From Octopus vulgaris (taxonomy: Eukaryota), in NCBI GenBank assembly GCA_951406725.2, contig OX597820.1, positions 30,690,001 through 30,754,000 of the forward strand: DNA of 64,000 bases, given 5' to 3'. How positions within the stretch are numbered: the stretch's first letter is position 1; each line of letters begins with the position of its first letter. The translations under genes and the position numbers were made by a program. The notes beneath the pieces were generated by a model, which was not told where the DNA came from, made no database searches, and saw only the letters and a program-made list of their open reading frames with translations. Shown here piece after piece: positions 411 to 39,157 of the stretch.

Positions 411-2540
411 TTAACACCAATCTCTGCATCGGGTGTATAACTTTACATCATGAAGAGGACTTTGTGAATGTAGCAGAGCATTGATTGTTTGGGTATGCAG
501 TTTAGACCTATTCTTGACTTTAATGTTATTAAGGACTGAAAATATTCTCTCGGTTGCAGCTGAAGAATGTGGTAATGATAGGAGTTGAAACATAAAGCAC
601 CATAGAACCAGATAACGAGCTTTATCTCTACATTTTTCCTTAGAAATTTTATATCAATAATCTTCTGGTTTGGTAGCTTCAGTTATGTCATTGTTATCTT
701 GAAGTTTAAGCTCCCTTCATTCTTTATTAAGAGCTTCAGTCTGACTCTCCTGAACAATATTTGGAAATTTGCATGCCAGAGGAACAACCGAACTTGGACC
801 ATTGTAATCACGAATACTAACTGGGTCTAGTACCTCTAGAAGCTTCACATTACGGAAGAAATCATGTTCAAAAAAGCGCTGAAAAAATTCCTTCACAGGG
901 CGCACATAAAAATTTAATGTTTTTACATAAAACTGTTCCAATACAGTTGTACTAATAAATGAACCTTTTTTTATGTAGATGCTTTCAACTTTTGCTCCTC
1001 TGTAAATTTCAGTTATGGGAGGATACACTGATGGATCATTGATGTTAATTTCATGTAGCTCTTTATTTTTCACAATTTATTTTTTAACAAAATTAGCAAG
1101 TATTCCCTTAACAGGATATGTAATAGATTTGTGCAGTTCGTGTATTCTATAGCTTTCTGATTGAAAATTTAAGTTCAACTTAATAATATCTAGCAAAATA
1201 TATGCTAAAAATGCATAATACACCTCTGTGATTGGATTTGTTAATGAGTTCAGTATATTTGAAGCTGCACTGTTGTCTTCAATAGCAACAGTAGTAAAGA
1301 ATAACACTAGAGCAGGCCACTGTTCTCGTATTCTTTAGACAACATGTTCTGAAGATAGCCACTTTGTACAACTTGCATGTAATAATTAGAGGATTTGTTT
1401 GAATAAATGCCTGAAATTCTTCATATTCCTGCAGTCTCTTTGGGCTATTTGAGAGGAATGAATATATGCTTCTAGCAAGTTCTTCTAAATATGAAGGTAA
1501 TTCTGAACATGCCTTTGATGCACAGTTATGCATAGAATAACAAACACAACCCTGAATAAAGAGAGAGGGAACTTTGTTCTTCAGTAATGCCTGCACACCG
1601 CCCTTTTGTTCCATCATTACACTAGCATTGTCTAAGGCAAATCCTATCAAATTTTCAAAAGGAATATCATGTAAGTTGAAGAATCTTTCAAAAGAGGAAA
1701 ATATCCCATTAGAAGAGCAATCCTTGGCTTCCAAAAGAATTAAATAACTATGAATAATTTTTTGAATGCTACAATCATAAAATCTAGACAACAGAACAAG
1801 GTGTTTTTTTTTTTGTACTTACGTCAGTAGTTTCATCAACAATTGATGAAAACGTGCACTCTTTGAAATATTCAATGAGGTTTTCAAAGTAATGTGGACC
1901 TAAAATATTTTTATGTATTTGAGTAGCTTTGGTTCTTGCACATTTAATATCTTTAGCTATTTTGGAATCAGGACATGCATTCTGAATTAGTCCAAGTAAA
2001 TGAGTCATAAGTCTCTCTGGTAAGTTACGTTCTGCAATGAAGGAACAAAGCTTAAGCTCCGCAGCTGCTACGCTTGTAATATGAACAGAAGAAGTTGTAG
2101 GCTGCCAAAAGTCGATCAGTTTTCCACTTTTATTTTCTGAATTAACATTTTTGATATGAAAACAATTGCAGCGTGGAAGGTGTTTATACGCCATTTAAGA
2201 AACACACAAAAACCGTTAGATTCACTTCAACATTTAAATTTAATTTGTCAAAATATTTTCGTCGCTTTGAGACCGCGACCTGTTCACTGACAAAATTCCA
2301 ATGCAGCACGGAAGGTAATTCTGAACATGCCTTTGATGCACAGTTATGCAATTGTTTTCGTTCCAGCACATGATCTCAGATCAGGTCACTTGCTATGCAA
2401 GTACATCTCCGTAATTTTTTATATGTTTATCCGTTTTCCCGTGCCTCTCCAGATGAGTTATACTGCCTTAAATTCCACAACGACAAAATTTGGAATACGC
2501 TCATTCGATATTTGCTTTACTTGGTTCTAATCATGATGAA
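411..2540 (-). pseudogene. Frameshifted hAT transposase (BED-finger/ZNF862-like type)
   Basis: Consecutive minus-strand ORF pieces: SIVDETTDVS (first catalytic D), GFALDNASVM (second D), CVCYSMHNC (degenerate CxxH), LSLPHSSAATERIFS (hAT dimerisation domain with catalytic E). Multiple stops and frameshifts. Interrupted at about 2158-2359. Confidence 0.9.
2244..2294 (-). ncRNA. Minimal type I hammerhead ribozyme motif, G3:C8 core variant
   Basis: Minus strand reads UUUGUCA-GUGAACA-G-GUCGC-ggucucaaa-GCGAC-GAAA-AUAU-UU-UGACAAA: 7-bp helix I, 5-bp helix II, palindromic helix III (AAUAUU), NUH = UUU. Confidence 0.7.
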
Positions 2541-4239: not shown

Positions 4240-4600
4240 AGTGTGGAAGACTAATCGAACCCTGAAGTACGCCAGTGTTCTTATAGTGTGTATCGGAGAG
4301 AACCTCTTCGACCCATACTGCAAAAGAGGAACGTTCTGACTGGAAACTTTGATCTGAGAGATGACAAGCGCATAGAACTAAGAGCCAAGGAACGTTACTA
4401 AGTTCTCGTACAAGACACTATTGACTTCTTAAAATTTTAGAGACTGCTTTCAAGTAGTGAGAGGTTTCTCAAGTAGATCTCATGCTCTTAAACCTATACA
4501 GGTCGTCACTAAGAAAGCAAGGAGATCCGAGGCGATGAAGGAGGTCTGAGATCGTGAGAGATATGTAATTGGACAGATTAGAGAAATTATCCGACTTAGG
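4240..4600 (-). pseudogene. Highly decayed CR1/L2/Jockey-group LINE reverse transcriptase fragment
   Basis: Minus-strand pieces PKSDNFSNLSNY, FLSDDLYRFKSMRST and NTGVLQGS resemble RT motifs PK..NYRPISL, Q.GFR..RST and GVPQGS. Confidence 0.55.
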
Positions 4601-38829: not shown

Positions 38830-39019
<190 letters not shown>

Positions 39020-39157
39020 CAATTGCAACGTGGAAGGTGTTTATAAGCCATTTAAGAGACACACAAAAACCGTTAGATTCACTTCAACATTTCAAATTTA
39101 ATTTCCCAAAATATTTTCGTCGCTTTGAGACCGCGACCTCTTCGTATATTATATATA

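Follow-up and report, generated by a model that had tools for sequence, protein, structure and literature searches.

On the minus strand at positions 2244–2294 of the window, the 64,000-nucleotide stretch of Octopus vulgaris DNA analysed here, a minimal type I hammerhead-like motif was identified in which G3:C8 takes the place of the usual core pair. The swapped core was shown to be the own state of the repeat family that carries the motif, and by its structure this repeat is the pseudo-LTR (3' end) of a Penelope-like retroelement (PLE). The site is probably best explained as a hammerhead-type motif of a PLE pseudo-LTR, in which cleavage, if it occurs at all, is predicted after U17 and would be likely to need a second copy or the protein of the element. 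Relative to the literature searched, the natural G3:C8 swap as a family-wide state is what is new here, and minimal PLE hammerheads and the U3:A8 exchange were known already.

A classical hammerhead has three helices and the letters C3 U4 G5 A6 N7 G8 A9, G12 A13 A14, A15.1–U16.1 and H17. The 51 bases of the minus strand at 2244–2294 read UUUGUCA / GUGAACA / G / GUCGC-GGUCUCAAA-GCGAC / GAA / AAUAUU / U / UGACAAA. Helix I was composed of seven Watson–Crick pairs between 2294–2288 (5' strand) and 2250–2244 (3' strand), and helix II of five pairs between 2279–2275 and 2265–2261, with its loop at 2274–2266. The core GUGAACA occupied 2287–2281, and an extra G was located at 2280 between A9 and G10.1. 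On the same strand, G12 A13 A14 were positioned at 2260–2258, the palindrome AAUAUU at 2257–2252 and U17 at 2251, and the predicted cut lay between 2251 and 2250. The letters U4, G5, A6, A9, G12, A13, A14, A15.1, U16.1 and U17 all matched those of the hammerhead. The only departures from the CUGANGA core were G at position 3 and C at position 8, which can form a Watson–Crick pair (G3:C8). The earlier note on this DNA had described the 7-bp helix I, the 5-bp helix II, GAAA, the AAUAUU palindrome and a core differing only at two mutually pairing positions, and all of these were found on the minus strand at 2244–2294. Against the full set of classical letters, the motif departed at G3, at C8 and at the extra G after A9. 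Moreover, AAUAUU was unable to form an intramolecular helix III, and only a 6-nt palindrome was present in its place. The extra G at 2280 and the inability of AAUAUU to close helix III were missing from the earlier note, and a reading as a three-helix hammerhead gave way to the minimal PLE type, which is without helix III and has the extra base after A9. Both helices of the motif were present in the minimum-energy fold (−13.8 kcal/mol, z −2.5), with 2 of 200 shuffled sequences equally stable, and the fold of the plus strand was weaker than that of the minus strand.

The state of the core was evaluated across the genomic copies of the repeat. An initial search of the 2.8-Gb genome with the stretch 2163–2300 (138 bp) returned 588 candidates, and 40 scored candidates yielded 59 matches, the full-length ones being 93–100% identical. 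Copies bearing the motif were counted with a pattern in which the flanks were fixed and the core was left free, and at least 1376 matches were obtained genome-wide, whereas the control gave 0. The sequence GTGAACAG, which holds the GUGAACA core, was present in 84 of the first 100 listed of these 1376 matches, and neither a CUGA.GA nor a UUGA.AA core occurred among the same 100. When copies were drawn by their 3' end, a recognisable motif was retained in 59 of 100; among these 59, the core was GTGAACA in 44, position 3 was G in all 59 and position 8 was C in 53. G3 and C8 were also kept in older copies, in all seven alignments covering the core. GUGAACA is the family consensus, and the first objection foreseen in the earlier note, a different consensus core, did not arise. 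Changes within the core numbered 20 in 800 sites of the first 100 listed copies and look like neutral decay. Because the copies are young (93–100% identity among those scored), conservation within the family says little on selection. No copy of the family had a second compensated state of the 3:8 pair. A common subfamily change from A to G in the 3' strand of helix I retained pairing as U.G in the strand of the motif, which weakly favours an RNA structure. The common variants and the borders of the unit were taken from contigs of 4 sequencing runs.

The carrier unit is about 210 nt long. It begins with AGATGCAGCA..., contains the motif and ends in ...CATCTCCGTA, next to which (TA)n is usually found. 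A 22-mer from its 3' end had 3311 genomic matches. The thousands of copies were mostly short 5'-truncated ends, often within (TA)n, and they were either solitary or paired in inverted orientation, 5' end to 5' end, the extent of truncation at the junction differing among pairs. An antisense arm was present upstream in 31 of the 100 copies of the sample drawn by 3' end. The target duplications of the insertions varied in length from 8 to 12 bp, for example CATATTATATT (L013), GATACAAACT (L026) and AAGGAAAT (L015). A one-sided tail, consisting of the last ~55 nt at one outer end only, was observed in 11 of 11 clear inverted pairs. The full element was traced through a rarer, longer form of the unit. 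In locus L085, the unit was present at 19–227 and again at 4280–4482, where (TA)n followed, and the motif was located at positions 42 and 4303, in sense orientation on both sides of an open frame of 777 aa that lies between the two units. The element was 4.2 kb long, with the unit as its last ~210 nt and repeated upstream as the pseudo-LTR.

In the 777-aa frame, the reverse transcriptase (RT) motif SRYVDDI (YVDD) was present, as were a CX3CX2C linker and VYQIKC...YIGETSRS, with which a GIY-YIG domain begins. According to the results of BLASTP, the frame was colinear with another PLE frame of the genome over ~560 residues (E 7e-9, 20% identity), for which Pfam called RVT_1 and GIY-YIG. For the L085 frame itself, neither RT nor GIY-YIG was called by Pfam, since the frame was too divergent for the thresholds, and a PDB sequence search gave no match at E ≤1. 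Its relatives in the databases were unnamed or reverse-transcriptase-domain proteins, two of which gave faint RVT_1 or GIY-YIG signals. A protein search of the genome returned 5928 candidates; many of the 142 listed matches were 97–99% identical over the full 276–277 residues of the query, and some were arranged in head-to-head pairs. Elsewhere in the full element, there was no hammerhead-like motif whose helix II had 5 or more pairs. The published description of EN+ PLEs gives pseudo-LTRs, inverted 5'-truncated partners, a one-sided tail and (TA)n targets among their features (Craig et al., 2021; PMC8557442). These same four features indicate that the carrier repeat is the pseudo-LTR, that is, the 3' end, of a PLE. 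The octopus element also shares with the EN+ PLEs of that description the CX3CX2C linker before GIY-YIG, and differs from them in that its L085 frame falls below the Pfam thresholds. A reading of the repeat as a SINE or polymerase III unit, drawn from the TTTT stretch at the end of the short form, was dropped after the full element was found, and the existence of a short and a long form agrees with the one-sided tail described for PLEs. Just before the usual start of short copies, AGATGCAGCA, the sequence GAACTAACTGTTACTTTCTCAG was observed at L085:4258–4283 and also in L097, L129, L133, L140 and L181. With a CTAAC like that of a branch point, a run of pyrimidines and an AG, it resembles a 3' splice site; in the Penelope element of Drosophila virilis, an intron is described as ending at helix I (PMC4209133). 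At L002:1786–1890, a 5'-truncated PLE end was fused directly to ~3.5 TTAGGG telomere-type repeats.

The C3:G8 pair of the hammerhead has been established from structures and laboratory mutants, and the identity of the pair was compared among the PLE families of the octopus genome. All families were compared with one descriptor, as a MAFFT alignment misplaced two of the sequences. A GIY-YIG search of the genome gave 6136 candidates, of which 30 loci were examined. A minimal motif with U3:A8 was present in 18 of these 30 GIY-YIG PLE loci (L049–L072), in sense orientation and ~100 nt before the (TA)n-flanked end, and read UUGAUAA-GGUUC...GAACC-GAA-ACAUGU (UUGAUAA ... GAAACAUGU). A family with 50% protein identity to that of the window carried UUGAAAA-G-GUUGC-AACAC-GCAAC-GAA-AAUU-U (UUGAAAA-G-GUUGC..GCAAC-GAAAAUUU) at the matching place, ~180 nt before the (TA)n end. 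It has the extra G in common with the GUGAACA family, one pair of helix II covaried between the two, and U3/A8 was retained in 33 of 33 genomic copies. A third family, with 50–51% identity (L217/L218), carried CUGAUGC-G-GUCAC...GUGAC-GAAA. This pattern had 3234 exact matches, and among the first 100 listed, C3 was present in 98 and C replaced A9 in 96. The C in place of A9 suggests that the motifs of this clade may be decaying. Among the three related PLE families, three different Watson–Crick pairs are present at 3:8. G3:C8 beside relatives with U3:A8 or C3:G8 at the same place is supported as the pattern expected of a compensated pair, in line with the suggestion of the earlier note that the core is a natural compensatory variant. 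The family-wide swap beside U3:A8 and C3/G8 sisters provides natural comparative support for the 3:8 pair. Two further motifs were observed during the comparison. One of the loci held a second version, in a short element at L061:1–300 that ended near a TA-rich microsatellite and carried a U3:A8 minimal hammerhead with other helices (AGGG/CCCT and CUGCA/UGCAG). Downstream of the end of a U3:A8 PLE copy, at L216:1308–1360, a canonical-core motif, CUGAUGA-AAGGU-AAAC-ACCUU-GAAAC-UCGG-GUC, was present; it may belong to a further insertion that carries a ribozyme, and Rfam gave no match to it.

The motif would descend from the minimal PLE hammerheads and work as they do. Helices I and II would form within one RNA, the AAUAUU palindromes of two copies would together make helix III, and the G:C swap would preserve the 3:8 pair, with a low cleavage activity as the expected outcome. 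In the published work on minimal PLE hammerheads, weak activity is reported, and as dimers only (PMC4209133). The intermolecular AAUAUU duplex was predicted at −0.2 kcal/mol, compared with −4.6 kcal/mol for the ACAUGU of the other PLE family, and there were no tandem pairs of the unit among the copies listed. Among the 100 copies sampled by 3' end, no excess of 5' ends was seen at the predicted cut, at the UUU triplet for which the earlier note had suggested possible activity. Two of the 100 alignments started there, one of which was an internal deletion; 62 copies began at unit positions 1–21, and the other ends were spread out. The motif is likely to cut weakly at best, and would then need a partner copy or a protein. 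Laboratory work on the swap itself is also available. In the PAc Poseidon element, either single change, C3G or G8C, is reported to abolish cleavage, which is regained in part in the double mutant when the element protein is present (PMC11167929); a G3–C8 laboratory variant is mentioned as active in another report (PMC3884650). On the other hand, the PAc study is reported to have detected no reads that end at the cut (PMC11167929). Only tentatively can it be proposed that the natural G3:C8 core is functional and that selection has preserved it in a PLE lineage of thousands of copies that was active recently.

An inactive relic is an unlikely alternative, albeit the one with the most to be said for it. 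The motif would be the descendant of a PLE hammerhead, dead through G3:C8, the all-A/U palindrome and the extra G; the family would spread without a working ribozyme, and the fold would persist only through inheritance, or because it serves some other purpose, for instance as a site where a protein binds the RNA. The very weak predicted pairing of AAUAUU in helix III, the lack of a pile-up of 5' ends at the cut among the 100 sampled copies and the C at position 9 in a sister family are consistent with such a relic. So are published observations on other elements: the hammerhead of the PAc element is described as dispensable for insertion in vitro (PMC11167929), and Naiad PLEs are described as thriving without a canonical hammerhead (PMC8557442). 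However, a Watson–Crick pair is retained at 3:8 in all three related families in three different forms, the laboratory G3:C8 mutant of a PLE hammerhead is partly active (PMC11167929), and helix I of the 2244–2294 motif was the strongest among the motifs compared.

The possibility of a chance look-alike, in which two nested hairpins of a repeat happen to stand beside letters like those of a hammerhead and have no ribozyme ancestor, was evaluated with two descriptors. The loose descriptor asked for a helix I of at least 6 pairs and a helix II of at least 4, with G–U pairs allowed, at most 2 core mismatches and neither helix III nor the palindrome, and it found 9 sites in the window against 9.7 expected in simulated sequence. 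Hence, loosely defined near-hammerheads are noise, and at that level the motif could be a coincidence. The descriptor of minimal PLE hammerheads asked for N3-UGA-N-N8-A with a Watson–Crick 3:8 pair, 0–1 extra base, a helix II of at least 4 pairs, GAA, a palindrome beginning with A, and H17. It matched the window once, at 2244–2294. In simulated sequence of 64 kb, it gave 0.08 sites without a requirement for helix I and 0.003 sites with a helix I of at least 5 pairs, and at the strength of the observed motif none of 300 simulations had a match. Furthermore, the position of the motif, on the sense strand of a PLE pseudo-LTR, is exactly the one at which PLEs carry hammerheads, and the motif has both the extra base and the G10.1–C11.1 pair of the PLE class. 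The hammerhead models of Rfam did not match the motif, either at the gathering threshold or at E ≤10, which would suit a coincidence, but Rfam also failed to detect the U3:A8 motifs in the GIY-YIG PLE loci, so its silence carries no weight. A chance origin is very improbable on these counts. Descriptors with fixed letters and Rfam models overlook motifs of this kind.

The descent from a PLE hammerhead, which is the preferred reading, agrees with what is described for known systems. The metazoan PLE hammerheads of Cervera and de la Pena (2014; PMC4209133) are minimal type I motifs without helix III and with palindromic 15.x–16.x positions, a conserved base between 9 and 10.1, a G10.1–C11.1 pair and a natural U3:A8 covariant. 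The octopus motif resembles the motifs of that account in its pseudo-LTR location, sense orientation, open helix I and absence of helix III. It also shares with them the palindromic 15.x–16.x, the base between A9 and G10.1, G10.1–C11.1 and the lack of a loop 3, as well as the very many dispersed copies, some of which are opposite-strand pairs. It differs in having G3:C8, where the account gives C3:G8 or U3:A8, and in its palindrome, which is all A/U. Natural U3:A8 core covariants were described by Perreault et al. (2011; PMC3088659) and in Schistosoma PLEs (PMC4209133). They likewise represent a compensated 3:8 exchange in nature, and U3:A8 is present in other PLE families of the octopus genome; the octopus motif is a transversion swap from C:G to G:C, whereas the exchange described there is a transition pair (PMC3088659). 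The same two letters were exchanged in the C3G/G8C laboratory double mutants (Martick and Scott, 2006, as cited in PMC11167929; see also PMC3884650). Those mutants were engineered (PMC11167929), whereas in the octopus an entire element family has the swap by inheritance. A natural G3:C8 core was not found in the literature searched, and Lunse, Weinberg and Breaker (2017), whose subject is PLE hammerhead variants, may report further core variants. If the G3:C8 core works, the identity of the 3:8 pair would be free in vivo, and searches that fix C3/G8 would miss whole families of ribozymes, also in elements reported without them. The motif is a ready test case for the weight of the 3:8 letters in protein-assisted PLE hammerheads.

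In the window, the PLE insertion comprised 2159–2413 and was flanked by two copies of a target duplication of ~12 bp, ATTTTTGATATG at 2147–2158 on the left and ATTTTTTATATG at 2414–2425 on the right. In hAT copies without the insertion, ATTTTTAATATG was present once at the target site. Arm 1 (2159–2300), whose sense strand is the minus strand, contained the motif, lacked ~10 nt at its 5' end and ended at its 3' end in the short form ...CAATTGTTTT, with no tail. Arm 2, whose sense strand is the plus strand, met arm 1 in a 5'-to-5' junction. The first 13 nt of arm 2 (2301–2313) correspond to the unit start AGATGCAGCA..., and its last 64 nt (2350–2413) carried the one-sided tail and ended in ...CATCTCCGTA. 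The interior of arm 2, its hammerhead included, was replaced by a filler of 40 nt on the plus strand (2311–2350), which was 100% identical to 1493–1532 of the window, inside the hAT transposase region ~800 bp away. The filler looks like the product of a repair or a template switch that deleted the interior of the arm. The host of the insertion consisted of decayed hAT transposase frames on the minus strand (411–2158). Its identity was based on the hAT C-terminal dimerisation domain at 411–653 of that strand (PF05699, E 1.1e-9).

Eleven other copies of the hAT element were compared with that of the window. The insert 2159–2413 was missing in nine, the insertion site was broken by other sequence in one (L036), and an insert was present at the same site in one (L038), there as a complete inverted pair. 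The earlier note had placed the motif in a short insert inside the hAT transposase; an insertion within a hAT copy it is, and its carrier is the PLE pseudo-LTR and no part of the hAT element. The position of the repeat within a hAT copy and the many inverted pairs among its copies would suit a DNA-level element, namely a foldback MITE of hAT whose hairpins would be transposase-binding or terminal-repeat structures. This identity of the carrier is refuted and was dropped: the repeat is absent from 9 of the 11 other hAT copies, the lengths of its target duplications range over 8–12 bp, a large number of copies consist of one arm cut back to a varying extent at the 5' end, and the unit flanks an RT/GIY-YIG frame.

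The motif copy of the window belongs to a dead PLE end, within a hAT copy that is itself dead, and plays no part there, so that the finding changes little for the window itself. A second copy of the PLE end was located at 39019–39143 on the minus strand, 5'-truncated, in the short form and flanked by (TA)n. It had been described as having lost helix I and the core; it starts inside the core as a result of the truncation, and the 3' strand of helix I is present with two changes. The hAT copies of L038 and of the window were 87% identical and have the site of their PLE insertion in common. This would mean that the hAT element was mobile after it had received the insertion, or that the site was struck on two occasions.
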